NCBI GenBank assembly: GCA_964491805.1
Contig: CAZBGU010000001.1
Span: 1,446 to 65,445 of the forward strand
Direction of reading: 5' to 3'
Length of the DNA stretch: 64,000 bases
Origin: an uncultured Candidatus Saccharibacteria bacterium
Lineage (GTDB): Bacteria; Patescibacteriota; Minisyncoccia; Phycocordibacterales; UBA5272
Below, in pieces: positions 8,831 through 55,875 of the stretch. Under the pieces are notes generated by a model that had not been told where the DNA came from, did no database searches, and worked only from the letters and a program-made list of their open reading frames with translations. The translations under genes and the position numbers were made by a program. Numbering within the stretch: position 1 is the first letter of the stretch; every line of letters starts with the position of its first letter.

Positions 8831-8841
8831 TATTACTTTCT

Positions 8842-36942: not shown

Positions 36943-37018
36943 TGGTGGACAGTAGAGGATTCGAACCTCTGACATCTACAACGTCAATGTAGCGCTCTAC
37001 CAACTGAGCTAACCGTCC
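36943..37018 (-). tRNA. tRNA-Val (anticodon GAC), CCA encoded
   Basis: The reverse complement folds as GGACGGT/ACTGTCC acceptor, anticodon loop TTGACGT, T-arm AGAGGTTCGAATCCTCT, then CCA. Confidence 0.85.
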
Positions 37019-37128: not shown

Positions 37129-37203
37129 GGCCCCATCGTCTATCGGTTAGGACATCGGCTTTTCATGCCGGTAAGCGGAGTTCGACTCTCCGTGGGGTCA
37201 CCA
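37129..37203 (+). tRNA. tRNA-Glu (anticodon UUC), CCA encoded
   Basis: GGCCCCA/TGGGGTC acceptor, anticodon stem TCGGC/GCCGG with loop TTTTCAT, T-arm CGGAGTTCGACTCTCCG, then CCA. Confidence 0.85.
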
Positions 37204-38373: not shown

Positions 38374-39409
38374 GCGAATTCAACTCCGAAGTGCAACACC
38401 CATGACTTGTAATGGTGTTGACCAGTTGAGGCGTTTTCTTGGTCGTGTGTTAAGTATATACTCTACTTTCTGTATATCTTCATCAGATATCTGTGTAAAG
38501 TCAGTCCCTTTAGGAAAGTATTCACGAATGAGTCCATTGGTATTCTCATTAGTACCTCGTTCCCATGAATGATATGGATGAGCGTAGTAAATAGAGGTCT
38601 CGAGAGTATCTTCCATATCTTTCCAATTGGTGTTCTCGCTACCATTGTCGAGTGTTACGGTATGACATGGGAAATAGATAAGCCTTTTCATGGCTTCTAC
38701 AGTAAGAAATACTTGTCTTGCTTTTCACACGAGTTATGAGTACGAACCCACTCTTGCGGTCAACAAGTGTATTAATTCCTGGCTTATGGTTACAAGACTC
38801 TACAGTGTCTCCTTCCCAGTCACCAAGACGTCTACGTGTTTCTACGATGTGGGGACGTATATCAATACTCTTACCAGAAACACGTTCCAGCTTAGTTGTT
38901 GTGCGTAATCCATGATGAGTCCTCCGCTTTTGTTTTCTTCGTAAATATGGATGCAAATCTTCTTTCTTTGGTTTAAGAAGTCCCCAGCCATCTCTATGTA
39001 TCTGATGATAGATGTATTGATAGATTGCTTCCTGAGAAATATTACCAAGTTTCTCTTTCTTAATCATTCCAGCTATTTGTTCTGGTGACCAACTGAGCTT
39101 TAGATGTGAGATGACGTAGTCTCGTATTGTATCGTTCTTGAGCCTATCTTCTCTTACTCTTTGTGTACGCTTATGAAGAGCTTTTTCATGAGCAAGGCGA
39201 GGTGTATATTGATTCCTTGTTTGTGGATAGTTCCTTCGTAGCTCTCTTGATATCGAGGACGGGGAGCGTTGTAAAACTTCAGCTATATATCTAATTGATT
39301 TCTTTTGCCATAGTAATTCTTGGAGTTTTTCTCGTTCCATAATACTTAAATGCTTGTAATTCATATGCTTCTATTTTACTAGAAGTGTTGCACTTACTTG
39401 TTGAATTCA
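38374..39409 (-). mobile_element. IS30-family insertion sequence, transposase disrupted
   Basis: Imperfect ~28-bp terminal inverted repeats (gcgaattcaactccgaagtgcaacaccc at 38374 and gtgaattcaacaagtaagtgcaacactt as the reverse complement at 39409, 22 of 28 matched). Transposase ORFs inside. Confidence 0.6.
38380..39364 (-). pseudogene. IS30-family transposase split into two overlapping frames (38639..39364 N-terminal HTH part, 38380..38691 C-terminal DDE part)
   Basis: N-terminus 'SIRYIAEVLQRSPSSISRELRRN' HTH. C-terminus 'TLDNGSENTNWKD...ILNTRPRKRLNWSTPLQV' is typical of the IS30 DDE domain. Frame change near 38640-38690. Confidence 0.55.
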
Positions 39410-39425
39410 CTGTTATAGTTCACTA

Positions 39426-40332
39426 CCTTGAGAACACCCTACTTAAAAATAGGATATTCTCATTGCATGTACTCAACTAACAAACATTTACCAAGAATTA
39501 GACGAGATGTAGCAATCTTTGCAAAGAAGTATGGAATACGTACAGCAAGTAGACATTATGGATATGCGGTAAGTGCTATTCATAAATGGATAAAGGTGTT
39601 GGATAAAATGGGACATCATCCAATACCAACAAAGAGCTCACGACCTCACAGTCATCCAAGAGCTACAGATGAAAGTATTGTTAAGAAAATAGTCGATAAA
39701 CGAATAGAAGTAAGAAGAAGTGCAGAGGTGGTACATGAGTATCTCAAACGTGAAGGAACAGTGGTATCTCTTACTACTGTAAAGAGAACTCTTGCACGTA
39801 AGAACCTTCTTAACAAACGTAGTCCTTGGAAGAGATATCACCCACCTGTAGATAGACCGTATCCTACAAAAGCTGGTGATTTGGTCGAAATTGACATCAT
39901 ACACACAATGCAGAGTAAGAAGGTACGAATGTATACTTTCGTACTCATTGATGTATATTCGAGATGGATATACGCAAAGAGCTATCAGAAGATTAATGCA
40001 AAGACATCACTTAAATTTGTTGCACTGGCACAGAAAGAATCATCCTTCCATTTCAGTATGATTCAAACAGACCATGGACCAGAATTTAGTACATGGTTTG
40101 TGTCTCAGGTGAAGAAGAATCACAGATATACACGTATTGGTAAACCTAATGATAACTCTCATATTGAACGAGCTAATAGAACTATACAAGAAGAGTGTTT
40201 AGATAGATTAATTCCTACACCTCGTATATTCAACAAAGCACTTACCTGCTACCTTCATTACTACAATACACAGAGATTGCACTTTGGAATTCAATTAAAA
40301 ACACCAGCAGAAATGCTTGGGTGTTCTCAAGG
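39426..40332 (+). mobile_element. IS481-family insertion sequence (candidate boundaries)
   Basis: 14-bp perfect inverted repeat ccttgagaacaccc (39426) and gggtgttctcaagg (40319) flanking a DDE transposase. Confidence 0.45.
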
Positions 40333-40342
40333 TATTGATTAG
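39467..40342 (+). CDS. IS481-family DDE transposase (integrase core)
   Basis: 'IDIIHT...MIQTDHGPEF...HIERANRTIQEE' DDE triad region. N-terminal HTH. Confidence 0.7.
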   Translation: MYSTNKHLPRIRRDVAIFAKKYGIRTASRHYGYAVSAIHKWIKVLDKMGHHPIPTKSSRPHSHPRATDESIVKKIVDKRIEVRRSAEVVHEYLKREGTVVSLTTVKRTLARKNLLNKRSPWKRYHPPVDRPYPTKAGDLVEIDIIHTMQSKKVRMYTFVLIDVYSRWIYAKSYQKINAKTSLKFVALAQKESSFHFSMIQTDHGPEFSTWFVSQVKKNHRYTRIGKPNDNSHIERANRTIQEECLDRLIPTPRIFNKALTCYLHYYNTQRLHFGIQLKTPAEMLGCSQGID

Positions 40343-41027: not shown

Positions 41028-42554
41028 ATGTATCACGAACAATTAGTCAATCATATAATTTCGAAAAAATCCGCTGGACTATCTCGTGAGGACATTCAAA
41101 AGGAGTTGCTTTCAGATGGCTGGAAGAAGGAAGATATTGATCTTGCGTATCATTATGTAGACCACCCTGCAGAACTTAAGCGACCATCTATCTATAGAAT
41201 TATTCACTCAGAAGTTAAGACGTCTGTTTTTATACTCACGCTCATTGCAACAATCGGCGCTAGTGCAACATTCTTTTCTTACTTTGGAACAGAAGTGAAT
41301 AACTACACTGTGATAGCATCAGCGTTACCTGCACAAGAAAAAACAATTTTTAAGTATGGAGTTCAGCCAGCACTTTCTAACATAGATTTTTTTAATACGA
41401 TAAAAAATCAATTTATCAGTGAAAAAGTAACCTTTGTTGAGGTTGATCTCTCTCGTATGATTGCTCGTGTGTATAGAGATGGTGTAGCAGTAGTTGAAGT
41501 TCCTGTGAAGACAAAAGGGAAGGAAGGTTCGTGGTGGGAGACGCCTGCCGGGCTATACAAAATACAAACAAAAGAAAAGACACATTATTCTAGTATGGGG
41601 CATGTAACTCAGCCGTGGAGTATGCAGTTCCAAGGTAACTTTTTTATTCACGGCTGGCCGGTATATGACGATGGTCGTCCAGTGGCTTCGACATTTTCTG
41701 GAGGTTGCGTTCGTCTTGCAGATGACGATGCAAAAAAAATCTATGATGCCGTAACTGTCGGTACTCCAATACTAGTGTACGAAAAAGATTTTGTTCTTGA
41801 CTCTTTTGTTTATTCTGAAAGAATACCCGGATCGCAATCTTTTGTGACATTGTACGCTGACATGTATAACAATTTTGTTTTTTATGAAAAGAACAAAAAT
41901 GAGTCTGTTGCGATTGGTGGGATTACAAAGTTGATGACCGCACTTATTGCAACTGAATATATCAATATTGAGAAAAATACTACAATTGAAGAATCTGATC
42001 TTGTTCCGACAGAAGTCCCTCGACTAAAAATAGGAATGAAAATTGATATGTATCAGTTACTCTTTCCTTTACTTCGGGAATCTTCAAATGAAGCAGGGGA
42101 GGCAATTGCATCATCGTATGGCAGGTCTCTATTTATTAAGCATATGAATGAAAAAGCGAAGTCTATCGGCATGACTCACACAGTTTTTGTTGATCCAACG
42201 GGTGTGTCAGATAAGAATGTGTCGACAGCTGAAGATTTATTCATGTTGGCAAAATATATTTATAACAACAGAAGCTTTATTTTTGCAATTACTTCGGGAA
42301 AGGTAAAAACAAATACATACGGCCAAAGTATCTTTGAGTCACTTAGAGAGTCAGATAGCGTCAGTAAAGATAATTTCTTCTTTGGTGGGGTAAGTGGTCA
42401 GAATGCTGGGGGTCTCGGGTATAATATTGCTGTATTCACTCCAGAACTAAACGGTACCACTCGGCCAATTTTTTTGGTAACTCTAGGATCACAGGATGAA
42501 AAAAATGACATTCGTAAAGGGTTAGCATATATCTTTGAAAGATATGGAAAGTAA
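41028..42554 (+). CDS. L,D-transpeptidase (YkuD) domain protein with C-terminal PBP/peptidase-S11-like domain
   Basis: YkuD catalytic 'FIHGWP...STFSGGCVRLADDD'. C-terminus has 'GGITKLMT' (the SxxK position reads G) and 'SSNEAG' (SxN). Confidence 0.65.
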   Translation: MYHEQLVNHIISKKSAGLSREDIQKELLSDGWKKEDIDLAYHYVDHPAELKRPSIYRIIHSEVKTSVFILTLIATIGASATFFSYFGTEVNNYTVIASALPAQEKTIFKYGVQPALSNIDFFNTIKNQFISEKVTFVEVDLSRMIARVYRDGVAVVEVPVKTKGKEGSWWETPAGLYKIQTKEKTHYSSMGHVTQPWSMQFQGNFFIHGWPVYDDGRPVASTFSGGCVRLADDDAKKIYDAVTVGTPILVYEKDFVLDSFVYSERIPGSQSFVTLYADMYNNFVFYEKNKNESVAIGGITKLMTALIATEYINIEKNTTIEESDLVPTEVPRLKIGMKIDMYQLLFPLLRESSNEAGEAIASSYGRSLFIKHMNEKAKSIGMTHTVFVDPTGVSDKNVSTAEDLFMLAKYIYNNRSFIFAITSGKVKTNTYGQSIFESLRESDSVSKDNFFFGGVSGQNAGGLGYNIAVFTPELNGTTRPIFLVTLGSQDEKNDIRKGLAYIFERYGK

Positions 42555-43383: not shown

Positions 43384-43535
43384 GAACTATTTTTATGTTC
43401 GAAAGAAGCGCGGCTGGAGGCCTCGCTTCTTTCGTCTTGGTATACAAAATTCTTAATATGTTGTTAATTACTATGGTTTTTTTGGGTGAAGTGTTATACA
43501 CTTACGAACGTAAGCTATTCTGCAATAAATACACA

Positions 43536-43916
43536 ATGAAAGAAACGGAAAAAAAGAAAATCCTAATTATAGAGGATGAAAAGCCTCTAGCGCATGCGCT
43601 GTCCCTCAAGCTATCTCACGAAGGTTTTGAAGTTGTTACTACAGCAAGTGGGGAGGAAGGGCTTCAGTTATTAACTAAAGACACATTCAGTCTTGTTCTT
43701 ACTGATCTCATTATTCCTGGTGTAGATGGTTTTAAGGTTCTAGAAACAATACAGGACAAAAAAATAAAGGTACCGGTTATTGTCATTACAAATCTTAATC
43801 AAGAAGAAGACAAAAAGCGTGTGTTTGACCTCGGCGCGGCTTCATTCTTTGTTAAATCTAATTCTCCAATTTCCGAGATTGTTGAAAATGTTAAAAGTAA
43901 AATAGCAAGTTCCTGA
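43536..43916 (+). CDS. Stand-alone response-regulator receiver (CheY-like)
   Basis: 'KILIIEDEKPLA...LVLTDLIIPGVDGF...VIVITN' with Asp pocket and phospho-acceptor D. Confidence 0.75.
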   Translation: MKETEKKKILIIEDEKPLAHALSLKLSHEGFEVVTTASGEEGLQLLTKDTFSLVLTDLIIPGVDGFKVLETIQDKKIKVPVIVITNLNQEEDKKRVFDLGAASFFVKSNSPISEIVENVKSKIASS

Positions 43917-43940: not shown

Positions 43941-45611
43941 ATGAACATTGACACCAACAACATAAAAGAAATTCTAATCACTGGGAATTATATCAGTGAG
44001 GAGGATGCACAAAAAGCAGAAGATATTGCAAAGAAAAATAGTATCTCTTTTATCGAAGCATTGTTGCGCGAAGGTGTTGTAAATAGTGACATAGTTGGAC
44101 AGGCTACAGCTGAAAGTTTCAAAGTTCCATATTCCGATCTTAACTCTGCTGCAATTAGTGCTGATCAGGTGCGTAAGATTCCAGAAGAGGTTGCAAAAAA
44201 GTTGCGAGTAGTTCTCTTTAACGATGAAGATGAAGAGGAAGTTGTCATTACAACCAATAATCCACTTCAAGATGGATTAGTTAAAGAGCTGCAGCCTCTC
44301 TTTAAAGGAAAGAAAATAAAAATTACATATTCTCTGCCAGAGGACATTGATAGTTTTTTTGTTTTCTACGAGAAGCCGCTTGATACCAGATTTTCAAAAA
44401 TCATAGCAGAATCTGATCGTGTTGCTCCAGAAATTCTTGAGGAGATTTTTGATGATGCAATTACATACAAAGCATCTGATGTTCACTTTGAACCGCAAGC
44501 ACGAGTTATTGTGATTCGTTTCCGTGTTGATGGTGTGCTTCACGAAGCAGGCCGTCTTCCAAAAGAAAATTATGAAAATGTTTTGAACCGAATTAAAGTT
44601 AAAAGCGCACTTCGCATTGATGAACATTATTCTGCGCAGGATGGGTCACTCCACTATGATGGTAAAAATGGAATTTCTGTGGATATGCGTACATCAATTA
44701 TTCCAATTGTTGAGGGCGAGAAAGTCGTACTCCGTATTCTTGGTTCGTACGTTCAGGGTCTTACTTTTAATGATCTTGGTCTAACTCCAAAAAATCAAGA
44801 GCTTCTTCGTGAAGCCGCAGATAAGCCATTCGGCATGATTCTTGTTGTTGGACCTACTGGTTCAGGAAAGACTACAACGCTTTACTCTCTTCTTAAGATG
44901 CTTAATACTCCTGATACAAACATTACCACAATTGAAGATCCGGTCGAGTACAAGGTTCAGGGTCTTAATCAGATTCAGGTAACACAAGCAACTGGCCTTA
45001 CATTCGTCCGTGGTCTGCGCGCAATCGTGCGACAAGATCCAGATATTATTCTTGTTGGAGAAATCCGTGACCTTGAAACTGTAGAGATTTCTGTTAATGC
45101 TGCGCTCACTGGTCATCTCCTTCTTTCTACTTTCCATGCCAATGATGCAGCAACAGCAATCCCTCGTCTTCTTGATATGGGGACAGAGCCATTTCTTCTT
45201 TCCTCAACGATGAATCTTATTATTGCCCAGCGACTTGTTCGTAAAATTTGTGATCATTGTAAGGTTAGTGTTGTTAAGAAGCCGTCAGATTTTGATACAC
45301 CACAATTAAAAGGGGTGCGTAAGTATCTTCCTGCGAAGAATCTTACTCTGTATGAGGGTAAGAAATGTGAAGTGTGCGGTTTTACGGGGTATAAAGGTAG
45401 AACTTCGATTTATGAAGTGATTAAAGTTACCCCAACAATGCAAGAACTGATAGTAAAACGTCCGTCAGCTCAAGAAATCTGGAAGCTAGCACGCAAGGAG
45501 GGTGCCAGGTCGGTGTTTGAGGATGGTCTTGAAAAGGTGAAGAATGGTATAACTTCTATTGAAGAGCTAGTCCGTATTGCTCCTCCGCCAGATCGTGCTT
45601 TTGATGAATAA
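43941..45611 (+). CDS. pilB: Type IV pilus / T2SS assembly ATPase PilB/GspE
   Basis: GSPII_E N-terminal domain. Walker A 'VVGPTGSGKTTTLYS'. Tetracysteine-like 'CDHCK...CEVCG'. Confidence 0.85.
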   Translation: MNIDTNNIKEILITGNYISEEDAQKAEDIAKKNSISFIEALLREGVVNSDIVGQATAESFKVPYSDLNSAAISADQVRKIPEEVAKKLRVVLFNDEDEEEVVITTNNPLQDGLVKELQPLFKGKKIKITYSLPEDIDSFFVFYEKPLDTRFSKIIAESDRVAPEILEEIFDDAITYKASDVHFEPQARVIVIRFRVDGVLHEAGRLPKENYENVLNRIKVKSALRIDEHYSAQDGSLHYDGKNGISVDMRTSIIPIVEGEKVVLRILGSYVQGLTFNDLGLTPKNQELLREAADKPFGMILVVGPTGSGKTTTLYSLLKMLNTPDTNITTIEDPVEYKVQGLNQIQVTQATGLTFVRGLRAIVRQDPDIILVGEIRDLETVEISVNAALTGHLLLSTFHANDAATAIPRLLDMGTEPFLLSSTMNLIIAQRLVRKICDHCKVSVVKKPSDFDTPQLKGVRKYLPAKNLTLYEGKKCEVCGFTGYKGRTSIYEVIKVTPTMQELIVKRPSAQEIWKLARKEGARSVFEDGLEKVKNGITSIEELVRIAPPPDRAFDE

Positions 45612-45621: not shown

Positions 45622-46947
45622 ATGTCTACGTCAATCATCAAAAAAAAGATATCAGAAAAAACTGAAGCGAACACCAAGAAAGAACAAAAACCACAGAAAG
45701 AAAAGAATGTTACAAAGAGTCAATCAAAAGAGACAGCTTCTTCTTTTGATGTTTCTCTTGTTTCTGGAGAAGTAAAACCTGTTCCTGTTCCAAAAAATGC
45801 AACCAAAGAGGAAAAGGTAACCATCTCTGAGCCTGTGAAGGCAACACCGGCACCTCAGCGTAAGATCGCAGAAGAAAAAAAATTGTCTACATTTGGTCTC
45901 AGTAAGGAGCGCGATCAGTTCATTGAAAATCTGAGCATGCTTGTCATGTCTGGAATGTCAATTATTGGAGCTCTTTCATCTATCATCAAACAAACCAAGT
46001 CGCCAGGAATGAAAAAAATTCTTGAAAGAATGTTACTTGAGATTGAGTCAGGTTCTCCTGTGTGGAAGTCACTTGATAAAACAGGTTTTTTTAAAGGGTA
46101 TACAATTTCCCTTATTCGTCTCGGGGAAGAGTCTGGCAATTTTGCTGAGAACCTCAAAGTCGTTGCGCTTGAAGAAGAAAAGGATCGTGAGTTTAAATCA
46201 AAAGTCCACTCAGCTCTTATGTACCCTGTTTTCGTGCTCGTGCTAACGAATGTTGTCGGTATTGGTATTTCGTGGTTTATTTTGCCTAAATTGGCAAAAA
46301 TTTTCTTTGACCTTAAACTCGCGCTACCTCTTATTACGAGAGTATTGATTGGTTTTGGTCTTTTTCTTAATAAGTATGGGCTTATAGCTGTTCCTGTAGC
46401 GGTTTTCTTCATAGGTATTATCGTCAATATTCTTTTTTTTGGTAAAAAAACCAAATTTCTTGGTGAGTATATAATTTTCTCTATACCAGGTATTAAGACA
46501 TTACTTATGGAGGTTGAGGTGGCTCGTTTTGGATATCTGCTCGGCACCCTTCTTGAGGCTGGGTTACCTGTGACGAAAGCAATTGATTCGCTAGCAGGCG
46601 CATCTGATGTCATCCGATACAAGAAATTTTATTTGTATCTAAAAGACTCGATTGATATGGGGAATTCGTTCCAGAAAAGTTTTGCTGGCTATAAAAATAT
46701 CGACAATCTCATACCGCAGCCAATTCAGCAGTTAATTGTCTCTGGTGAACAGTCTGGCAATCTTAATAAAACACTTATTAAGGTCGGCCAAGTGCTTGAA
46801 GCAAAGTCAGACACGACAACAAAGAATCTCACTATTATTATGGAACCAATTTTGCTTGTTATTGTGTGGGCGGGTGTAGTGTCTGTTGCATTTGCGGTAA
46901 TACTTCCTATTTACAGTCTTGTCGGTAATCTTAACGGTCTTAAATAG
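45622..46947 (+). CDS. pilC: Type IV pilus platform protein PilC/GspF with Lys/Glu-rich N-terminal extension
   Basis: Two T2SSF repeats ('LSMLVMSGMSIIGAL', 'FGYLLGTLLEAGLPV'). 3 TM. Confidence 0.8.
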   Translation: MSTSIIKKKISEKTEANTKKEQKPQKEKNVTKSQSKETASSFDVSLVSGEVKPVPVPKNATKEEKVTISEPVKATPAPQRKIAEEKKLSTFGLSKERDQFIENLSMLVMSGMSIIGALSSIIKQTKSPGMKKILERMLLEIESGSPVWKSLDKTGFFKGYTISLIRLGEESGNFAENLKVVALEEEKDREFKSKVHSALMYPVFVLVLTNVVGIGISWFILPKLAKIFFDLKLALPLITRVLIGFGLFLNKYGLIAVPVAVFFIGIIVNILFFGKKTKFLGEYIIFSIPGIKTLLMEVEVARFGYLLGTLLEAGLPVTKAIDSLAGASDVIRYKKFYLYLKDSIDMGNSFQKSFAGYKNIDNLIPQPIQQLIVSGEQSGNLNKTLIKVGQVLEAKSDTTTKNLTIIMEPILLVIVWAGVVSVAFAVILPIYSLVGNLNGLK

Positions 46948-46952: not shown

Positions 46953-47402
46953 ATGAGACATATCAAAGTATCACATAAAGGTTTTACACTTCCTGAGGTT
47001 TTGCTTTCAGTTGCACTGCTAACAATTATTGGTGGGATGAGTATTCCAATGTATCGTGTCTTCATGGTTCGTGATGAATTGGACAGTGCAGCAACAACAC
47101 TAGCGCAGAACCTGAGACGTGCACAGATGCTTTCCCGCTCTTCGTCTGGGGATATGACATGGGGTGTTCATGTAGGGGTAGGGAGTATACTTATCTATAA
47201 AGGATCAAATTACGTTCTTCGAGATTCTTCATTTGATGAGAACACGTCTATCCCGACAACGATTGTTCCAACCGGTACAACAGAGGTCACCTTTTCAAAG
47301 GTAACGGGTTTACCTTCGGCGACAGGAACGTTCACACTTACTTCGCAAGCTAATGAAAAACGAACTATCACAATCAATGAAAAAGGAACGGTTGACTACT
47401 AG
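46953..47402 (+). CDS. Prepilin-type (pseudopilin/minor pilin) protein
   Basis: Class III signal 'MRHIKVSHKG/FTLPEVLL'. Confidence 0.7.
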   Translation: MRHIKVSHKGFTLPEVLLSVALLTIIGGMSIPMYRVFMVRDELDSAATTLAQNLRRAQMLSRSSSGDMTWGVHVGVGSILIYKGSNYVLRDSSFDENTSIPTTIVPTGTTEVTFSKVTGLPSATGTFTLTSQANEKRTITINEKGTVDY

Positions 47403-49671
47403 GAGTGGTTTTTTGTTGGTTGAAGTTATACTCACAAGTGCTTTATTCTTTCTTTTTGTAACTGCATTCGTTGGCGTATTGTATTACGCAATACAGTCGT
47501 CATCATTTGCAGGTGACCGGTCACGCGCTGTGATGCTTGCTGAAGAAGGCCAAGAAGCTGTAAGGAGTATCAAAAATGCTAATTTTTCTAATCTTACAGA
47601 TGGGACGTATGGTCTTACTTTTTCGGGTAATACGTGGAGTTTCTCAGGAACACAAGATATTTCTGGTGCTTTTACTCGTAAGGTTATTATAACTACACCA
47701 TCAACAAATAGAAAAAATGTTGAAGTTGTTGTCTCGTGGCAGCAGACTCCAGATAGAGTTGGAAGCGTTAGTATTCCTGCGCGTTTTTCAAACTGGAGAA
47801 CGATTCTTAATCCAGGAGTTGGGGTTACGGTAACAAGTGTTGTCATTAATCATGGTCAGTCAAAAAATGTTAATGACTTTGCACCGTATAAAGTTGGAAC
47901 GACAACTGTAACATTGGCTTCTTCTACTATCTTTTCTCCCGGCACATATGTAGTCACCGCTGCTACAAGTTCTAACTATACACAAACATTTAGCGGGGAC
48001 TGTAATGTGAGTGGTCAGCTTACAATTACTGCAGGAGCAGCTAAGGTGTGTACTATTACGTACGAAGAAAAACTTGCATATGTAACACTTACTAATACTG
48101 TTATTAATCACGGCAGGACAAAAACAACTGCTGATTTTGCTCCGTATAAAGTTGGATCGACTACGGTTACTTTGGGAGCGACGACGCCTATAAATTCCGG
48201 ATCTTATTCTATTAGTGAAACAACAGATGTTAATTATAACCTAACATTTACAGGTGACTGTTTTACTAATGGTACTATCACACTTAATCCTGGCAGTAAC
48301 ACAACATGTGCGCTAACAAATGAGGAAATAATAACAGGGGGCGGAGGGGGAAGTCAGTCACTTGCTGGAATTATAATTTATGGGGACGGCACTAATATTC
48401 CCAAGTATAGAACCTTCAACCATGTAACAAATGTATTTAGTGCAGAGACTGGGACGTTTGTTGCGACAGTCGGGCCAACTTGGCTTATACGAACATCCCC
48501 AACACAGCACATTGCTCTTGCTGGGTACTATGACTCTACTGCGACACTTACGATTATGTGTTTTGACGGAATAACGTGGACACAAGAATTTCGTGCAGCG
48601 TCAGGTGGTGTTGGTAATCGTCATCGTTTTGATATTGCTTTTGAAAAGACATCCGGCGACGCAATGGTACTTTTTAGTAAAGGGAACAATATTCTTGGGG
48701 CACTTGGGTATAAAACTAAAACAGGCGGGACCGGTTGCGGAGCTGGCTGGGCAGCAGAACAGACCCTTACCCCGCAGAGAACGACAAATGATATTATGTA
48801 CGTAAAACTTGCGCAAGATAGACGTGCTGGCTCAAACCTATTAGCTGCCACATGGGTTGATATTAATGAAGATATTTCAGCTAAGATATGGGCTGGCTCA
48901 GCTTGGGTAAATGAGCCTTCATCTGTTACGGATAATAATCTTGAAAAGGTCACCACTTCTCACGATATTGAGAATATGGATATTGAGTATGAGTCTTTGT
49001 CAGGAGATCTCATGCTTGTTTGGTCAAATGCCCTAGGTAATAATGGTACTAATGGTGCTCGTTATAGAACATGTAATGGTGGTATAGCTATGTGTACATG
49101 GGGGGCAGTGACAACACCGCCATCGTTTCTTGATGATGCAACGAGTCTTGACATTGCTGCAAATCAAAATACTGACGAGATGGTTTTTGCATCGATTGGT
49201 AATGCTGGGGGAGATCTACAGTTAGGGTATTGGAATGGAAATGGATGGACAAATACTGCAAACGTAGACACATCATGTACTGTTCCGTATACTGCATCAA
49301 AGCTTGTTTCTACGGGTTGGCTCACGCTTGGAAGCACAACACGATCTATTGTGGTGTATTCTGACCTTAGTTCTACTGCTATTAATTGGTACACTGGTAA
49401 CGCTGGAGTCTTTACGCGACAAGCTGACTTTGTCCCAACTAGTCCAGTTGCTTCACCTCGCGGGTATATGGATATCCACATGAACCCGCGAGATCAGTCT
49501 CAACTCATGTATCTTACTTCTGATAATAATAGTGATCTATTTGCAAAGCGTCTTATGTTAACAGGGACATCAACGTTTACGTGGACTAATTCTGATGGTG
49601 GTTCGGCACTAGAGACAACGCTTCCACAGATTATTTCTTCCCCATTTTCATTTGCCTTTTGGCAACAGTAG
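47377..49671 (+). CDS. Large (764 aa) pilin-like protein with prepilin leader and two ~80-aa internal tandem repeats, candidate tip adhesin
   Basis: Leader 'MKKERLTTRSG/FLLVEV' (E at +5). Repeats 'VINHGQSKNVNDFAPYKVGTTTVTL...' and 'VINHGRTKTTADFAPYKVGSTTVTL...'. Start overlaps the upstream gene by 26 nt. Confidence 0.55.
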   Translation: MKKERLTTRSGFLLVEVILTSALFFLFVTAFVGVLYYAIQSSSFAGDRSRAVMLAEEGQEAVRSIKNANFSNLTDGTYGLTFSGNTWSFSGTQDISGAFTRKVIITTPSTNRKNVEVVVSWQQTPDRVGSVSIPARFSNWRTILNPGVGVTVTSVVINHGQSKNVNDFAPYKVGTTTVTLASSTIFSPGTYVVTAATSSNYTQTFSGDCNVSGQLTITAGAAKVCTITYEEKLAYVTLTNTVINHGRTKTTADFAPYKVGSTTVTLGATTPINSGSYSISETTDVNYNLTFTGDCFTNGTITLNPGSNTTCALTNEEIITGGGGGSQSLAGIIIYGDGTNIPKYRTFNHVTNVFSAETGTFVATVGPTWLIRTSPTQHIALAGYYDSTATLTIMCFDGITWTQEFRAASGGVGNRHRFDIAFEKTSGDAMVLFSKGNNILGALGYKTKTGGTGCGAGWAAEQTLTPQRTTNDIMYVKLAQDRRAGSNLLAATWVDINEDISAKIWAGSAWVNEPSSVTDNNLEKVTTSHDIENMDIEYESLSGDLMLVWSNALGNNGTNGARYRTCNGGIAMCTWGAVTTPPSFLDDATSLDIAANQNTDEMVFASIGNAGGDLQLGYWNGNGWTNTANVDTSCTVPYTASKLVSTGWLTLGSTTRSIVVYSDLSSTAINWYTGNAGVFTRQADFVPTSPVASPRGYMDIHMNPRDQSQLMYLTSDNNSDLFAKRLMLTGTSTFTWTNSDGGSALETTLPQIISSPFSFAFWQQ

Positions 49672-50189
49672 TACGTATGAATATCCTTAAAACACAAAAA
49701 GGCTTCACCTTGGTGGAAATGGTGCTTTATGTTGCGCTCTGCTCTCTTCTACTTCTTTCTTTATCTGGTTTCACATCGTTTCTTTTAGAGACCAAAACAA
49801 GAAGTCAAGCTATTAACGAAGTTAATCAACAAGGTTCGCAAGTAATGTCACTCATTGTACAGACTATTAGAAACAGTAAAAGTGTAGAATCTCCACAGTT
49901 TGGACAAAGCTCTTCAACGCTTTCTGTAACAACATCAAACCCATTACTTAACCCTACGGTTTTTTTATTAAGCACCACCACTCTTGTTGTTAGTGAGGCC
50001 GGTAAAACTTCAATTGCGCTTACTAATTCTCGAGTAGCAGTTTCTTCTCTATTATTTCAAAATATTTCTTCAACATCTTCATTAGAGAAGAATATCAGAA
50101 TATCATTTACGATTGACGCAGTTAACAAAAGCGGTAGAGGAGAGTATTCGTATACAAAAACGTTTAATGGTAGTGCTATAATTCACTAA
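49659..50189 (+). CDS. Prepilin-type pseudopilin
   Basis: 'KTQKG/FTLVEMVLYVAL'. Confidence 0.65.
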   Translation: MATVVRMNILKTQKGFTLVEMVLYVALCSLLLLSLSGFTSFLLETKTRSQAINEVNQQGSQVMSLIVQTIRNSKSVESPQFGQSSSTLSVTTSNPLLNPTVFLLSTTTLVVSEAGKTSIALTNSRVAVSSLLFQNISSTSSLEKNIRISFTIDAVNKSGRGEYSYTKTFNGSAIIH

Positions 50190-50196: not shown

Positions 50197-50613
50197 TTGA
50201 TGAAAAGTATATCAGTAGAAAAATACAGAACAGTAAGAAAGGGGTATATTGCATTGCTTTCAGTTATATTTATTTCAGCAATTGGTGTCTTGATTATGCT
50301 TTCTGTTATTGCGTCAGGAGTTGATGCGTCTAAAACCGACTATGTATCTCAACAATCAGGACAGTCAAGAGCGATGGCTTCTTCGTGCGCAGAAGAAGCT
50401 TTACAGAAGATACTCGAAACAGGCACGACGTCAAGTGTAGGGACACTTACTATAGCTTCTGGGACCTGTACATATGTAATAAGCTCGGTCGGTGGTTTGC
50501 ACGTTGATTCGACTGGTGTTTTTGGATCTATCACATCAAAGGTAAAAGTAGTAATTTCGACAACATCCCCTTCAATTGTCTTATCCTCATGGTCAGAAGT
50601 TGCAGACTTCTAA
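50197..50613 (+). CDS. Pilin-like protein with non-canonical leader (PilX-like?)
   Basis: 'RKGYIALLSVIFISAIGVLIML' hydrophobic N-terminus. No Glu at +5. Confidence 0.4.
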   Translation: MMKSISVEKYRTVRKGYIALLSVIFISAIGVLIMLSVIASGVDASKTDYVSQQSGQSRAMASSCAEEALQKILETGTTSSVGTLTIASGTCTYVISSVGGLHVDSTGVFGSITSKVKVVISTTSPSIVLSSWSEVADF

Positions 50614-50756: not shown

Positions 50757-51212
50757 ATGAAAAAAATACTACGCAGTCAGAAGGGATTTACACTTATTGA
50801 AATCCTCCTTGTGGTTGCAGCTATCGCTATTCTTGCAGGTATCGTTATCGTGGCTATTAACCCAGCTAAGCAGCTTGGCGACACACGTAATGCTTCAAGA
50901 AATTCAGCTGTAAACACAATTCTTAATGCCATTACACAGTATTCAGTTGACAATAACGGTATCCTTCCGTCTGGAATTACCGCAACTTCGACAGAAATCT
51001 GTTCTTCATCTGTAGCAACATCATCATGTACAGGTCTTGTTGACCTTTCTGTTCTTACAGCTGGTGGTAAGTACATTACTGCTATTCCAGATGAACCACA
51101 GAAGACCAATCCTAACGGAGCTGGTTATACAGTTTCTAAGAATGCAGCTGGTCGTATCACCGTGAGTGCACAGTTCCCAGAAAGTGGTGCTGTTATCTCG
51201 GTAACACGCTAA
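50757..51212 (+). CDS. Type IV major pilin, copy 1
   Basis: 'MKKILRSQKG/FTLIEILLVVAAIAILAGIV'. Conserved Cys pair. Confidence 0.75.
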   Translation: MKKILRSQKGFTLIEILLVVAAIAILAGIVIVAINPAKQLGDTRNASRNSAVNTILNAITQYSVDNNGILPSGITATSTEICSSSVATSSCTGLVDLSVLTAGGKYITAIPDEPQKTNPNGAGYTVSKNAAGRITVSAQFPESGAVISVTR

Positions 51213-51232: not shown

Positions 51233-51688
51233 ATGAAAAAAATACTACGCAGTCAGAAGGGATTTACACTTATTGAAATCCTCCTTGTGGTTGCAGCTAT
51301 CGCTATTCTTGCAGGTATCGTTATCGTGGCTATTAACCCAGCTAAGCAGCTTGGCGACACACGTAATGCTTCAAGAAATTCAGCTGTAAACACAATTCTT
51401 AATGCCATTACACAGTATTCAGTTGACAATAACGGTATCCTTCCGTCTGGAATTACCGCAACTTCGACAGAAATCTGTTCTTCATCTGTAGCAACATCAT
51501 CATGTACAGGTCTTGTTGACCTTTCTGTTCTTACAGCTGGTGGTAAGTATGTCACCGCTATCCCTGATGAACCACAGAAGACCAATCCTAATGGTGCAGG
51601 CTATATGGTTTCAAAGAATTCTAATGGTCGCATCACTGTAAGCGCTCAGTTCCCAGAGAGTGGTGCTTCTATCTCTGTAACTAGATAG
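51233..51688 (+). CDS. Type IV major pilin, copy 2 (tandem duplicate)
   Basis: Nucleotide-identical to copy 1 over the first ~313 nt and diverged thereafter. Confidence 0.75.
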   Translation: MKKILRSQKGFTLIEILLVVAAIAILAGIVIVAINPAKQLGDTRNASRNSAVNTILNAITQYSVDNNGILPSGITATSTEICSSSVATSSCTGLVDLSVLTAGGKYVTAIPDEPQKTNPNGAGYMVSKNSNGRITVSAQFPESGASISVTR

Positions 51689-51695: not shown

Positions 51696-52499
51696 ATGTT
51701 TACTTGGTTCTCTCGTAAGAAAATGACTGAATCTCGTAGTTCGGAGAAAAAAGATGATGGTTTTATATCTCTTGCTTCTCATGAATTGCGTTCACCACTG
51801 TCTATAATCAAATGGTATACAGAGATTCTTCTTGACGAAGATGCTGGCCCACTCACTAGCGACCAACGTAAGTATCTTATGACCATAGAATCAAGTAATC
51901 AGCGCGCAATTGATCTTGTTCGGTCTTTACTAAACGTATCCAGGTTAGACCTGGGTACGTTTAGTGTTTCACCTGTCAGTCTTAACATTGCAACTATACT
52001 CACGGAAGTTGTTTCATCTTTTAGCAAAGAGATGGAAGTAAAACACCTTGAGGTAATTAATAGTGCCAAGGATGTAAAGAATATTCTTGCAGACAAAAAT
52101 CTTTGTACGACTCTCGTTAAGAATGTTATTGCAAATGCAATCTCATTTTCAAGTAATGGGGGAAAGATTTTCATTGACACATCAGTTGTGTCTGCATATG
52201 AAAAGATCGGAGAGGTGACAGTTAACGAAGAAAGTATTCTTTTTTCTGTTAGAGATACCGGTATCGGTATACCTGAGGCAGATAAAGATAAGGTTTTCAC
52301 GAAGATGTTTAAAGCAGGGAATGTTAAGGATTCTGATAGTACAGGTTCTGGTCTTGGGTTATATATTACAAAAAGTATTCTCGATTATGTTGGTGGTACT
52401 ATTTGTTTCACTTCGACAGAAGGTGAAGGTTCAACTTTTTTTGTGACTTTGCCTACAAGAGGTATGGAAAAGAAAGAAGGAAGGACGACACTGGATTAA
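51696..52499 (+). CDS. Sensorless histidine kinase (HisKA + HATPase_c only)
   Basis: H-box 'ISLASHELRSPLSII'. G-boxes 'DTGIGIP', 'GSGLGLYI'. No TM or sensor domain. Confidence 0.75.
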   Translation: MFTWFSRKKMTESRSSEKKDDGFISLASHELRSPLSIIKWYTEILLDEDAGPLTSDQRKYLMTIESSNQRAIDLVRSLLNVSRLDLGTFSVSPVSLNIATILTEVVSSFSKEMEVKHLEVINSAKDVKNILADKNLCTTLVKNVIANAISFSSNGGKIFIDTSVVSAYEKIGEVTVNEESILFSVRDTGIGIPEADKDKVFTKMFKAGNVKDSDSTGSGLGLYITKSILDYVGGTICFTSTEGEGSTFFVTLPTRGMEKKEGRTTLD

Positions 52500-52610: not shown

Positions 52611-54125
52611 TTACACGCCTCGTAACACTGTAATTTTTGCACCAATACTGTTAAGTCTTTCTGCTATGTCTGCATAGCCCCGCTTTATAGAGTAAACATT
52701 ACGAAGCATTGATGTTCCTTCTGCAGCAAGCATCGCGATAAGAATAATTGCTGTTGGACGAAGCGCTGGTGGCGATACGATTTGTGCACCTCTAAGTCGT
52801 TTGATGCCTGTGATAAGTGCCCTGTGTGGATCAAGAAGTTTAATGTCTGCTCCTAGTCTATTGAGTTCAGTAAAGTAAATTGCACGGTTCTCCCAGGTCC
52901 AGTCGTGAATAAGTGTTTGGCCATGAGCAAAGCAACAGATGGGTACAAAGAAAGGGAGATTGTCATTATTAATTCCTGGAAACGGTTGTGTATGTATCTT
53001 GTCATATGGAGCAACCAGTTCGGATGGAAATAGTGTTATATCTACAAGTACAGTTTTGTTGTTTTTTGAAAGATAGGATTTTGATTGTTTGTAAACAAGA
53101 CCCATGCGCTTCAGTTTTTCGATTTCAAGAGTTAGAAAATCTATTGGACAGCGAGTTACGGTTAGCTTTGATTTTGTAACAATACCAGCCGCAATAAAGA
53201 ACATGCTTTCTATGGGATCTTCGCTATTGTAATGTTCTACGGTGAGGTTGATTGTTTTTTTGCCGTGGACAGTTAACGTCGTTGTGCCTATGCCGTCAAT
53301 TTGTACACCGAATGACTGTAATAGAAAACATACATCTTGCACTTGGTAGTTAGGAGGTGCAAATTTAATAACAGTGGTGCCTTCTATTCTCGATGCCGCA
53401 ATTAGTGCAGTAATGGCCCCAGTGTCAGACGACTCATAGAGAGGTATAACGCCAGGGGACAGCTCTTTGTAGGAGATTTCATAGTGGTTCTCTTTCGTAA
53501 CTACCTGTACACCGAGGTAATCAAGTGCGTACTTATGCGAAGCAACAGTTCGTTCACCCATTTTACAGCCACCGGAGTGAGGAAGTGAAAACGAATCCGT
53601 GAAATGAATAAATGCGCCAGCAAAGGTAAACGATCGAATCTTTTCTGCGGCCTGTTTGTTGATCTTAGAAAAAGTGAGTTTCTTTGGTGGTGTAATTTCG
53701 AGCGCTGTATCATTATGAGTCCAACGTATCTTCACCCCAACACTTTCTAGAAGCTCTTTATAGCGGTATACCTCTTCTATGTGAGGAATGTCTCGAAGTG
53801 TTGTTGTTCCTGAGTTAACAAGTGCCGCCACCATCATGTTAATTGCACCATTCTTAGAGGTATTGGTAGCAATAGTGCCTTTCAGCTTTCTTCCACCTTC
53901 AACTTTGAAGTCTATAGTATCTTGGATGCTAACAATGTTATGCTTAAGAACCTCGCCTATTTTCATTAGTTGTTCTATAGTGACGTTTTGATTGCCTGCT
54001 TCGATGCGTGCAACTGCTGACTGAGATGTCTTAAGCTTCTCAGAAAACTCACCCTGTGTCATCCCTTTTTCTTCCCGTAATTTCTTAATAAAAAGCCCGA
54101 TTTTCTCCTGGTCATTTGGTTCCAT
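52611..54125 (-). CDS. murA: XRE-family HTH domain fused to UDP-N-acetylglucosamine 1-carboxyvinyltransferase MurA
   Basis: N-terminus 'LFIKKLREEKGMTQGEFSEKLKTSQSAVARIEAG' HTH_XRE. MurA 'KVEGGRKLKGTIATNTSKNGA', active-site Cys loop 'GGCKMGERTVASH', C-terminus 'IKRGYADIAERLNSIGAKI'. Confidence 0.75.
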   Translation of the reverse strand: MEPNDQEKIGLFIKKLREEKGMTQGEFSEKLKTSQSAVARIEAGNQNVTIEQLMKIGEVLKHNIVSIQDTIDFKVEGGRKLKGTIATNTSKNGAINMMVAALVNSGTTTLRDIPHIEEVYRYKELLESVGVKIRWTHNDTALEITPPKKLTFSKINKQAAEKIRSFTFAGAFIHFTDSFSLPHSGGCKMGERTVASHKYALDYLGVQVVTKENHYEISYKELSPGVIPLYESSDTGAITALIAASRIEGTTVIKFAPPNYQVQDVCFLLQSFGVQIDGIGTTTLTVHGKKTINLTVEHYNSEDPIESMFFIAAGIVTKSKLTVTRCPIDFLTLEIEKLKRMGLVYKQSKSYLSKNNKTVLVDITLFPSELVAPYDKIHTQPFPGINNDNLPFFVPICCFAHGQTLIHDWTWENRAIYFTELNRLGADIKLLDPHRALITGIKRLRGAQIVSPPALRPTAIILIAMLAAEGTSMLRNVYSIKRGYADIAERLNSIGAKITVLRGV

Positions 54126-55527: not shown

Positions 55528-55875
55528 TTGTATACTAAAGATATGAAAACAACTCAGTTTCTAGAATATATCCTGTATGATATTTTTGGTGAGCATGAGC
55601 CAATAACTGCGCGAGCGATGATGGGTGCACATGTTCTTTACTATGAAGGTAAGGCTTTTGCTATTGTTGAAAATGAAGAGTTGTACTTCAAAGGCTCGAA
55701 GGAATTAAAAGAGTGGTACCTGTCTCGTGGCAGTAAACAGTTTACGTATACGAAAGAAGGAGAGGACGCACATCTGTATTATTTTCTCGTACCGTCTGAA
55801 ATTTATGAAGACAGAGTAGCGCGAGATGAGTGGTTAGATGTTGCGCTCAGTGTAGCGAAGCTGCCAAAAAGTTGA
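55528..55875 (+). CDS. TfoX N-terminal-domain-like protein
   Basis: 'ARAMMGAHVLYYEGKAFAIVENEELYFKG' resembles the TfoX_N family. Confidence 0.35.
   Translation: MYTKDMKTTQFLEYILYDIFGEHEPITARAMMGAHVLYYEGKAFAIVENEELYFKGSKELKEWYLSRGSKQFTYTKEGEDAHLYYFLVPSEIYEDRVARDEWLDVALSVAKLPKS

Follow-up and report, generated by a model that had tools for sequence, protein, structure and literature searches.

Locus and operon context

The 64-kb window (64,000 nt, the whole stretch of DNA analyzed) carries a pilus operon on its forward strand. The operon is headed by the gene of a response-regulator receiver protein (43395-43916; Pfam Response_reg, 2.6e-23), whose position is kept in the related loci L001 and L004. 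The genes of a PilB/GspE-type assembly ATPase (43941-45611; Pfam T2SSE, 5.8e-121; NCBIfam PilB, 1.2e-145) and a PilC/GspF-type platform protein (45622-46947; Pfam T2SSF, 4.1e-42; start according to the L001 gene call) come next. The first minor pilin gene (46953-47402) encodes 149 aa with the motif KG/FTLPE and belongs to the GspH/FimU/ComGD class (Pfam GspH, 4.5e-5, and N_methyl, 7e-5; NCBIfam ComGD, 7e-6). The second, at 47353-49671 (stop codon 49669-49671), is the large modular minor pilin analyzed here, and was delimited from the ORF list, the homologue set and a start-codon analysis. It is followed by a GspJ/PilW/ComGF-like minor pilin of 170 aa with KG/FTLVE (49677-50189; Pfam N_methyl, 1.1e-5; start according to the L001 gene call), for which the NCBIfam matches to PRK10557, PRK10332 (PpdB-like) and ComGF are all under their curated cut-offs. 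A fourth minor pilin-like protein of 137 aa with RKG/YIALL (50200-50613) lacks Glu at +5, as do GspK, PilX and ComGG (NCBIfam ComGG_2, 7.7e-4, under the cut-off). Two major pilin genes complete the set: copy 1 (50757-51212; 151 aa, KG/FTLIE; Pfam N_methyl, 5.8e-7; TIGR02532, 3.4e-7) and its tandem duplicate, copy 2 (51233-51688), identical at 426/456 nt and 146/151 aa. The operon ends with a histidine kinase gene (51696-52499; HisKA and HATPase_c in Pfam), which is kept in L004.

The big minor pilin occupies the "I" slot, i.e., the second position of an H-I-J-K minor-pilin set lying between pilB-pilC and the two major-pilin genes. The order pilB-pilC-H-I-J-K-major pilins is kept in L001-L004 and about 20 further genomes at species level, and across many Patescibacteria. 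Homologues of the big minor pilin (more than 200, identity 60-84%) belong to MAGs of Paceibacterota, Parcubacteria and many more Patescibacteria, which bears out the original guess of a CPR-like organism. Genes for PilD (by Peptidase_A24 motif and Pfam), PilT and PilM were not found in the 64-kb window.

The best NCBIfam names of the four minor pilins are ComGD, ComGE, ComGF and ComGG, and a TfoX_N gene, kept in L004, lies about 3 kb downstream (55528-55875). Both point to a competence-type (Com-like) pilus, in which the big minor pilin would be a DNA receptor or DNA-uptake protein at the tip. CPR bacteria are not known to synthesize nucleotides and presumably scavenge DNA instead, which would suit such a function. 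However, every Com match is far under its curated cut-off, and ComEA, ComEC and DprA were not seen in the 64-kb window. The propeller and both repeats of the big minor pilin (see below) are acidic, with pI values of 4.7-5.6, which speaks against direct DNA binding, and in a distant relative the operon is joined to a chemotaxis cluster and pilM, which suggests a pilus for motility or attachment instead. We regard a DNA-uptake function as unlikely.

Start codon and prepilin leader

The product of the gene is 772 aa long from ATG 47353 and 764 aa long from ATG 47377, the start used in the original prediction. The Met at 47377 is replaced by Ile or Thr in 41/98 homologues, and these proteins run further upstream (MKQEMSQL...). 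Therefore, ATG 47353 is more likely to be the family-conserved start, as judged from the alignment. The leader is then 19 aa long and the overlap with the upstream pilin gene is 50 nt; the 26 nt first proposed apply only to a start at 47377, as the upstream pilin gene ends at 47402. The mature minor pilin is identical for both starts, and the reading of its N-terminus as a pilin leader stands.

This class III (prepilin) leader, MKKERLTTRSG ending in Gly-1, covers 47377-47409; with the upstream ATG as start, it reaches back to 47353. It has the form expected of a prepilin, i.e., a short charged leader ending in Gly or Ala at -1. Among 121 aligned family members, Gly occupies position -1 in 95 sequences and Ala in 8; at +1, 101/103 have Phe, and at +5, 111/111 have Glu. 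The leader MKKERLTTRSG/FLLVEV with Glu at +5, as first described, is thus borne out by the family. The segment FLLVEVILTSALFFLFVTAFVGVLYY follows the cleavage site, includes Glu at +5 and is the only hydrophobic segment of the protein; in the hydropathy profile, aa 8-42 are the sole strongly hydrophobic stretch. The big minor pilin retains its Glu at +5; by analogy with GspK, one would expect the neighboring 137-aa protein at the apex instead.

The public gene call P0001 starts at TTG 47416 and yields 751 aa in which the motif is lost. With this start, the protein would not be a pilin but a signal-anchored surface protein. An AGGAG sequence at 47401-47405, 10 nt upstream of the TTG, could serve this start, and several public gene calls likewise begin inside or after the motif (P0001, P0017, P0021, P0052, P0057, P0080, P0082 and P0109). 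About 1 in 10 public calls of the pilin family do so. However, the codon corresponding to the TTG is CTT, CTC or CTA in 20/28 related loci, while the prepilin motif or a close variant is present in 103/121 family proteins. The codons of G-F-L-L-V-E differ synonymously between related loci with the peptide kept, and all four synonymous forms of the Gly-1 codon occur. A product beginning with MVEV... would also be without a charged N-region. We consider call P0001 to be wrong, since the motif is conserved and the TTG is not, and it is extremely unlikely that the protein is a surface protein of this other kind. The original prediction had named a true start downstream of the motif as the finding that would speak against a pilin; the related loci indicate that the start lies upstream of it and that the prepilin motif is part of the translated product.

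Pilin module

The region behind the leader was first described as one Thr/Ser/Gly/Asn-rich domain of about 750 aa. While the composition agrees with this (T 14.0%, G 9.4%, S 9.3%, N 6.9%), the AlphaFold2 (AF2) model of the whole protein (pLDDT 86) divides it into four predicted modules: a pilin "lollipop", two SpaA_2-type Ig-like domains, a Gly linker and an eight-bladed beta-propeller.

At 47410-47580 lie the codons of the mature N-terminus, FLLVE with Glu+5, and of the long alpha-1 helix (aa 12-68), as supported by hydropathy, DSSP of the AF2 models and the invariance of Glu+5. The hydrophobic first half of the helix, aa 12-42, is the only segment suited to span the membrane or lie in the filament core. 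DSSP places the helix at 12-68 and 9-68 in two AF2 models. The globular head (47581-47799; pLDDT about 90) is modeled as an antiparallel beta-sheet formed by aa 76-138 and resembles the GspI/PilV/ComGE class. Helix and strands together are predicted to form the lollipop fold of pilins, at a pLDDT of 86-88.

Among 28 N-modules of the family, 17 match ComGE, 17 PilV, 12 GspI and 12 XpsI in NCBIfam, and 15/28 (above threshold) and 12/28 match N_methyl (PF07963) and TIGR02532, respectively; the homologue P0003 reaches 25.7 bits against N_methyl, for which the cut-off is 21.2. The big minor pilin itself has no N_methyl or TIGR02532 match at E<0.1 and stays below all NCBIfam pilin thresholds; its XpsI score is 16.8 bits, where the cut-off is 150. 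Within the family, too, the highest-scoring class matches are sub-threshold (ComGE, 1.4e-7; PilV, 2.2e-5; GspI, 7.2e-5). The N-module profile matches type IV pilin N-termini in the PDB, and EpsI (2RET_C) and GspI (3CI0_I) were the top two of 350,542 PDB chains in Foldseek, though these matches are weak (E 0.16-0.18, TM 0.43-0.56). We tentatively place the N-module in the GspI/PilV/ComGE class, by resemblance only, as all class scores are under their thresholds. That the protein is a pilin, as originally proposed, is well supported by the conserved motif, the predicted alpha-1 helix and beta-sheet head, the HMM matches in the family and the pilB-pilC operon.

Ig-like stalk and linker

The two tandem repeats noted earlier were confirmed. 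They have a period of 86 aa, at aa ~147-231 and 233-317, and share 38/79 identical residues (48%); their local alignment score of 215 compares with 36 ± 6 in 500 shuffles (z ~30). No tandem repeat was found at DNA level. Repeat 1 (47815-48069) carries the pair Cys209-Cys225, both residues being invariant, and repeat 2 (48073-48327) the conserved pair Cys295-Cys311. Each is an Ig-like beta-sandwich, with seven strands in the AF2 model. The two repeats do not match Pfam SpaA_2 (PF19403) themselves; the homologous repeats of P0002 do so in five stretches (71.7 bits vs a cut-off of 25, E 8e-20). By way of this homologue, the stalk repeats may be assigned to the SpaA_2 prealbumin-like Ig domains. 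Their number varies from 0 to about 10 among homologues. Repeat 2 is followed by the Gly-rich flexible linker TGGGGGSQ, aa 320-327 (48334-48357), where the AF2 pLDDT is <50.

C-terminal propeller

The C-terminal module, aa 328-764 (48358-49668), has 437 aa and 47 kDa and is modeled as a beta-propeller of eight four-stranded blades. N-terminal strands (329-359) and a C-terminal strand (757-761, FSFAF) close the ring in the model. The end motif PFSFAFW sits internally in non-pilin relatives and can therefore be recognized as the strand that closes the propeller. The module is acidic (pI 4.8) and contains 45 aromatic residues. It matches no Pfam family, has no solved sequence relative and gave no HMM match to any PDB chain; by fold, it comes closest to the PLL/PHL lectins of Photorhabdus and to generic propellers with eight blades. 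Structure prediction of the C-terminal part, proposed at the outset as a search for beta-sandwich or lectin folds, gave Ig-like beta-sandwiches and a propeller with a lectin-like fold.

Outside pilins, the same propeller is present in surface proteins of CPR, Elusimicrobia and Acidimicrobiales. It follows a Sec-type signal anchor in large surface proteins that also have LamG, DUF2341 and fn3 domains, and it is further found in giant proteins of Elusimicrobia and Acidimicrobiales. This distribution suggests an extracellular module that has been grafted onto different carriers, and the family comprises at least 468 clusters at 50% identity.

Conservation is highest in the propeller (73%, vs 62% in the pilin head), and dozens of its residues are invariant across lineages. 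A receptor-binding tip that tracks diverse hosts would not be expected to be the most conserved module, which counts against the tip-adhesin reading preferred below; high conservation is easier to reconcile with a ligand that is itself conserved, or with an internal role in structure or biogenesis.

In several blades, the inner strand carries conserved Asp/Glu residues (FDIAFE, MDIEYE, LDIAAN, MDIHMN). These might mark the propeller as an enzyme carried on the pilus tip, for instance a glycoside hydrolase or a lyase with cell wall or polysaccharide as its substrate. However, the matches that support this score under lectins and generic propellers, and neither a sequence-family match to any enzyme nor a catalytic motif was identified, making an enzymatic role very unlikely.

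Proposed function

Taken together, the prepilin motif, the modules, the operon context and the presence of the propeller on other carriers indicate a modular minor pilin that is analogous to PilX2 and functionally to PilY1. The joint reading we favor, and hold to be somewhat likely as a whole, is that of a minor type IV pilin with a class III signal peptide, an Ig stalk and a C-terminal propeller shown at the pilus tip as a ligand-binding head. Within this reading, we infer the tip location, the ligand and the adhesion role; the pilin anchor probably displays the propeller at the tip, where it would bind something. Besides the conservation of the propeller, this reading is weakened by the sub-threshold N_methyl and NCBIfam scores of the protein itself, the non-significant GspI fold match (E 0.16), the lack of PilD, PilT and PilM genes in the 64-kb window and the retained Glu at +5. 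The initial suggestion of a tip adhesin is consistent with the lectin-like propeller on an Ig stalk, its occurrence in non-pilin surface proteins and, by analogy, the PilX2 precedent.

As a mechanism, we propose that a prepilin peptidase encoded elsewhere cleaves after Gly-1, and that the pilin module then joins the neighboring H-, J- and K-class minor pilins in a priming complex. The PilB/PilC machine would build a filament of the two 151-aa major pilins on this complex, which would stay distal while the Ig stalk, varying in length with lineage, carries the propeller at the pilus tip. A tip position would follow because the priming complex remains distal and the filament body has no room for so bulky a propeller. 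The acidic, aromatic-rich, lectin-like propeller would serve as the ligand-binding head, and its likeliest ligand might be a conserved surface glycan of the host or partner cell. The covalent fusion would then do what PilC/PilY1 does in T4aP by non-covalent docking on the minor-pilin cap.

Alternatively, the propeller could work inside the pilus machinery in the manner of PilC/PilY1, by stabilizing the priming complex, supporting assembly, countering retraction or sensing tension, without being an adhesin for foreign surfaces. The conservation of the propeller described above would suit such a role, as would the membership of the big minor pilin in the core H-I-J-K set that primes assembly, and PilC/PilY1 is needed for biogenesis through contact with the cap (10.64898/2026.09.18.752573). 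However, the same propeller is found in many non-pilin proteins without a pilus context, and the two Ig domains and flexible Gly linker would put it an estimated 8-10 nm from the cap. The range of 0 to 10 spacer repeats among relatives also fits reach better than a fixed contact, and TM7x without PilX2 still makes filaments (PMC11623550). An internal role of this kind is rather unlikely.

A bolder version of the tip-adhesin reading is less likely than not: Patescibacteria may have fused an undescribed family of extracellular eight-bladed propellers covalently to a GspI/PilV-class core minor pilin, replacing the docked PilY1, with the Ig stalk tuning tip reach and the propeller recognizing a conserved partner structure. 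If true, the high conservation of the propeller would reflect that partner structure, possibly a cell-wall glycan common to hosts, and many uncultured CPR lineages would have in the propeller a general head for capturing hosts.

To our knowledge, every member of the Patescibacteria cultivated to date lives attached to another microbe. Only a few factors have been demonstrated to drive this attachment, type IV pili being one of them, and the pilin family offers a well-modeled candidate for the head by which the pilus would bind in Paceibacteria/Parcubacteria-type lineages. To search for the ligand or host, the propeller could be produced recombinantly and used as bait. Census-type pilin searches miss the family, because start sites are called inside or after the motif and because motif and propeller are under database thresholds. 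The propeller, which giant surface proteins of Elusimicrobia and Actinobacteria also carry, merits a curated domain-family entry.

Comparison with known systems

The GspI/EpsI/PilV/ComGE proteins are the best HMM class of the N-module and include its top two fold matches (PDB 3CI0 chain I, 2RET chain C), though every score is under its curated or significance threshold. The GspI class and the big minor pilin also have in common the second position in a four-gene minor-pilin set, with a K-class member without Glu5 present. In contrast, classical GspI-class members are single-domain proteins of about 120 aa without C-terminal modules. The propeller has fold similarity to the PLL/PHL lectins (PDB 5C9O, 6RGR), at 9-13% identity and with eight blades rather than seven. 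Generic WD40 and cd1 propellers score nearly as high, and membership in the PLL/AAL-type lectin sequence family was not indicated, as no PDB chain gave an HMM match.

The propeller of PilY1 is a modified seven-bladed one. PilC/PilY1 (PF05567 / IPR008707) is likewise large, has a C-terminal beta-propeller, is tied to the four core minor pilins and is displayed at the tip, on the PilHIJK cap (10.64898/2026.09.18.752573). However, PilY1 is no pilin: it has a Sec signal, and a 12-residue plug at its C-terminus docks on the K-class pilin (10.64898/2026.09.18.752573). In PilY1, the conserved propeller is the carrier rather than the effector. The big minor pilin has its own prepilin leader in place of a docked non-pilin, and no sequence match to the PilY1 C-terminal propeller family (PF05567, IPR008707) was found in it.

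CofB and TcpB are type IVb minor pilins with beta-rich extra domains on a linker that start assembly and sit at the tip (PMC8179133, PMC5207764). They belong to a T4b system and differ in that the extra domains are a beta-repeat and a beta-sandwich forming trimers, with no propeller; no sequence relation to the big minor pilin was found.

Modular type IV pilins were defined on Streptococcus sanguinis PilB (vWA module) and PilC (ConA-like lectin module), and are predicted to be tip-exposed, with examples from monoderms and CPR (PMC8179133). The big minor pilin shares the design, as its pilin module is fused to modules that are also found outside pilus proteins, but here these are two SpaA_2 domains and an unannotated eight-bladed propeller. 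A census based on InterPro would overlook this architecture, since neither its pilin motif nor its propeller reaches database thresholds.

PilX2 of Nanosynbacter lyticus TM7x, a protein of the thin T4P-2 pilus, is likewise a large Patescibacteria minor pilin with a C-terminal beta-propeller (PMC11623550 / PMC12206443), and is required for efficient host binding (PMC11623550). Like the big minor pilin, PilX2 is encoded at the same locus as its major pilin, is a proposed tip adhesin with possible glycan specificity and has PLL lectin as a structural neighbor. By its published description, PilX2 has seven blades, RCC1 repeats and a non-canonical signal peptide, whereas the big minor pilin has a canonical G/FxxxE leader, eight blades, two Ig-like spacers and no RCC1 or other Pfam match. 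The big minor pilin is a fresh example of a known design and not a different type of system; it leaves the picture of the type IV pilus unchanged and extends the design principle.

Start codon and prepilin motif

The open reading frame ending at position 49671 (+) can begin at ATG 47353 (772 aa) or at ATG 47377 (764 aa), and residues are numbered here from the latter. Read from ATG 47377, the prepilin leader MKKERLTTRSG/FLLVEV described in the original prediction is present, and the 26-nt overlap with the upstream pilin gene, which ends at 47402, is exact; starting from ATG 47353 the overlap is 50 nt. The sole strongly hydrophobic segment spans residues 8-42, and the protein is rich in T (14.0%), G (9.4%), S (9.3%) and N (6.9%).

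P0001, an exact public copy of the protein (751 aa), is annotated from TTG 47416, close behind an AGGAG at 47401-47405. This start would cut G-F-L off the prepilin motif, removing the leader and masking the pilin nature of the protein. As public annotations adopt it, the reading in which translation begins downstream of the motif and the protein is no pilin was weighed seriously, and it is ruled out by codon-level conservation in 28 related loci. There the motif is kept while its codons vary synonymously (Gly GGT/GGG/GGA/GGC; Phe TTT/TTC; Glu GAA/GAG), and the codon at the TTG start of P0001 is CTT, CTC or CTA in 20 of the 28. Thus, the prepilin peptide is under selection and the TTG start is not conserved. 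The motif [GA]/F[LSV]L[VI]E occurs in 100 of 121 family proteins, with near variants in 3 more, and the family proteins without it are 5'-truncated gene calls or contig fragments. The family alignment has Gly (95 sequences) or Ala (8) at position -1, Phe at +1 in 101/103, and Glu at +5 in 111/111. The motif is translated, and the true start does not lie downstream of it.

Between the two ATG codons, alignment of the family favors ATG 47353 as the more likely start, because 41 of 98 homologues covering the column of Met 47377 have Ile or Thr there, and these 41 extend further upstream. The mature protein is the same whichever ATG is used. Public gene calls in this family often begin within or after the prepilin motif (about 10 of the 121 entries); P0001, P0017, P0021, P0052, P0057, P0078, P0080, P0082 and P0109 are such clipped entries.

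Modules and predicted structure

Searches of the full protein against Pfam and NCBIfam returned nothing usable, the sole match being BetaGal_dom3 (E 0.07), and no relative was found among PDB sequences for the full protein (phmmer) or the propeller profile (hmmsearch). Matches to LigA, Q-beta coat and LT-IIB were rejected as short chance matches. An AlphaFold2 model built from 37 sequences (mean pLDDT 85.7) confidently shows four modules. The pilin module is predicted as a long helix (aa 12-68) packed against an antiparallel sheet (aa 76-138), i.e., the pilin lollipop, which a separate model confirmed (pLDDT 88.1).

The tandem repeats noticed earlier are real: two copies with a period of 86 aa, identical at 38 of 79 residues, whose local alignment score (Smith-Waterman) is 215 compared with 36 +/- 6 in 500 shuffles. 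No tandem repeat underlies them at DNA level (TRF). They are predicted as beta-sandwiches (aa 149-231 and 234-317) with an invariant Cys pair in each, and the homologous repeats of P0002, a ten-repeat relative, match Pfam SpaA_2 at E 8e-20. The two repeats are probably prealbumin/Cna-B-type stalk domains. A disordered GGGGG stretch (aa 320-327) links them to an all-beta region (aa 328-764).

In the model, the strands of this last region form eight groups of four, the first group being completed by the C-terminal strand FSFAF, and the region is therefore predicted to be an eight-bladed beta-propeller whose fold similarity is generic and lectin-leaning. Neither Pfam nor NCBIfam has a family for it, and none of the solved structures is a sequence relative. 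The original prediction had proposed looking for a lectin or beta-sandwich fold in the C-terminal domain; the predicted propeller has a lectin likeness barely above that to unrelated propellers. The conserved ...SSPFSFAFWQQ end was also considered as a C-terminal "plug". This was rejected, since non-pilin relatives carry the motif internally and PFSFAFW forms the closing strand of the propeller in the model, not a PilY1-type plug. The propeller is acidic (pI 4.8) and has abundant aromatic residues.

Pilin class and operon

When the N-modules of 28 family members were scanned alone, the commonest classes were ComGE (17), PilV (17), GspI (12) and XpsI (12), all with matches below curated cut-offs. 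The N-module of our protein matched only XpsI (E 0.005), and the best two PDB fold matches of its pilin head were EpsI and GspI, neither significant. The gene order fits the I class, with an H-like pilin upstream and J-like then K-like pilins downstream. The upstream minor pilin is GspH/ComGD-like (Pfam GspH 4.5e-5), the next gene encodes a ComGF/PpdB-like pilin, and the last of the set a ComGG-like protein whose leader RKG/YIALL shares the absence of Glu5 with GspK/PilX.

A response regulator, PilB (T2SSE 6e-121) and PilC precede the minor-pilin set, and two nearly identical 151-aa major pilin genes (50757-51212 and 51233-51688, both +) and a histidine kinase follow it. The major pilin pair is a tandem duplicate, identical at 426/456 nt and 146/151 aa, with all five differences in the C-terminal third; the related locus L004 has such a pair as well. 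A non-coding gap of 143 nt ahead of the first copy may contain a separate promoter. No prepilin peptidase, PilT or PilM/N/O was detected in the 64-kb window (GxGDxK regex; Pfam scans of 40 other ORFs).

Comparison with related genomes shows that both large homologous pilins and the operon layout recur. The layout is repeated on independent contigs carrying the identical protein, in a Paceibacterota MAG with a 69% identical protein, and in about 20 species-level genomes where the PilB Walker A and prepilin motifs lie at fixed offsets. In the locus of P0118, a distant relative labelled Peregrinibacteria (L003 1-9500), the order is HK-PilB-PilC-minor pilins with pilM downstream, and a complete Che cluster lies directly upstream (CheW, MCP with dCache, CheY, CheB, Hpt, CheA, CheC, CheD). 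Such an arrangement is suggestive of a pilus under Che-type control in this lineage, whereas the operon in the window is flanked only by the response regulator and histidine kinase. Collectively, the protein is strongly supported as a prepilin-type minor pilin of the I class in a conserved T4P operon, with an Ig-like stalk and a propeller.

Close homologues number more than 200 and are 60-84% identical at about 770 aa. Those with a named source come from Patescibacteria, and "PilV" is a frequent JGI label. Many close relatives are labelled "Candidatus Saccharibacteria" and others of similar identity Paceibacterota, while the pilin-propeller contigs L028, L030, L034, L040, L045 and L084 were deposited as "uncultured Gammaproteobacteria" or "Pseudomonadales" MAGs; automated taxon labels of such contigs look unreliable.

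Neighboring genes

A large surface-glycan biosynthesis cluster occupies approximately 13100-34058 and includes MBOAT, two GT-D glycosyltransferases, a carbamoyltransferase, a DegT aminotransferase, a PglD-like acetyltransferase, a flippase, a Polysacc_synt_2 dehydratase, an FkbM methyltransferase and GT2, GT25 and GT1 enzymes. Its last gene (31830-34058) encodes a 742-aa O-antigen-ligase-like Wzy_C protein. Wzy_C is the domain that characterizes PglL and PilO, which are pilin O-oligosaccharyltransferases, and the Ser/Thr-rich pilins could be substrates. Two tRNA genes (36946-37018, -; 37129-37200, +) lie between this cluster and mobile-element remnants at 38639-40342, namely an HTH_38 protein (38639-39364, -) and an rve/rve_3 integrase-core transposase (39428-40342, +). 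Just upstream of the pilus operon, a 508-aa protein (41028-42554, +) combines a YkuD L,D-transpeptidase and a Peptidase_S11 D-Ala-D-Ala carboxypeptidase in one polypeptide.

Downstream, a 504-aa protein (52611-54125, -) joins an N-terminal XRE-type HTH region to a MurA/EPSP_synthase-like part, the Pfam assignment being taken from the syntenic gene in L004; such a fusion of a DNA-binding domain and a cell-wall enzyme fold is unusual. A TfoX_N protein (55528-55875, +; Pfam 4.9e-21) is encoded about 3 kb downstream of the pilus operon, and the neighborhood of HK, HTH-EPSP_synthase fusion, Nramp and TfoX_N is shared with L004. This neighborhood may link the pilus to competence regulation. The pilus might conceivably serve DNA uptake, as the TfoX_N gene is close by and the best HMM names of the minor pilins are Com proteins, although the acidity of the propeller makes it ill suited to binding DNA. 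With a pI of 4.8, the propeller is unlikely to bind DNA directly.

The propeller outside pili

A search with the propeller alone against 1.84 billion cluster representatives gave 468 proteins at E <= 1e-3. One group consists of proteins of about 600 aa with prepilin leader, pilin head and propeller, and no repeats. In a second, a Sec-type signal anchor precedes the propeller and as many as thousands of residues come after it, with downstream domains including DUF2341, Laminin_G_3, fn3 and LTD. The third comprises giant proteins from Elusimicrobia (>3,500 aa) and Acidimicrobiales. Judged by these sequence matches, the propeller is not specific to pili. In a modular pilin as defined in the literature, the pilin carrier bears a fused module without specificity for pilus biology (PMC8179133), and our protein agrees with this definition because its propeller also occurs in non-pilin proteins.

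In P0142 (6719 aa) and P0166 (7926 aa) the propeller module matches at 11 and 13 separate places, respectively, and both giant proteins appear to be arrays of propeller domains within a single polypeptide. LTD, which accompanies the propeller in one of the non-pilin relatives, also occurs in the window, where the gene for a 627-aa TrwB/HerA-like (DUF87) ATPase precedes that for a 443-aa Lamin Tail Domain protein (6947-10173, +).

Proposed function

The H-I-J-K minor-pilin set primes assembly and stays at the distal end in T2SS and T4P. Our protein would join this set, prime pilus assembly with it and remain distal. Since a 47-kDa propeller cannot fit in the filament body, it would probably be displayed at the pilus tip on the Ig-like stalk, whose length would depend on lineage; stalk repeats vary from 0 to about 10 between lineages. 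More tentatively, the propeller might act as a ligand-binding head, probably for a glycan, because it is acidic, aromatic-rich and lectin-like and has LamG-type companions in other surface proteins. Among the modules, the propeller is conserved best, its mean pairwise identity being 73% compared with 62% in the pilin head. Such conservation is easier to reconcile with a conserved ligand or an internal role than with a host receptor-binding protein that evolves fast.

For uncultured CPR of the Paceibacteria type, the propeller offers a candidate head for host binding. The analysis also corrects a recurrent gene-call error, and the propeller family is worth curating.

Comparison with known systems

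Motif, predicted fold and context place the protein in the type IV pilin superfamily, where it resembles the GspI/PilV/ComGE class at scores below the class thresholds. It has no sequence relation to PLL lectins, and its propeller is not of the RCC1 type. Membership of the PilY1 family was rejected, as there is no family match and a pilin leader is present in the protein itself. PilC/PilY1 is its functional analogue in classical T4aP, where it is kept on the PilHIJK cap through a C-terminal plug (10.64898/2026.09.18.752573), whereas our protein has its propeller linked covalently. Among experimentally studied proteins, the closest precedent is the minor pilin PilX2 of Saccharibacteria TM7x, which ends in a seven-bladed propeller; deletion of PilX2 halved host binding and spared filament formation (PMC11623550). 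The design principle and a propeller-bearing CPR minor pilin are already published, while neither the architecture of an I-class pilin, SpaA_2 x n and an eight-bladed propeller nor the propeller family seems to have been annotated.
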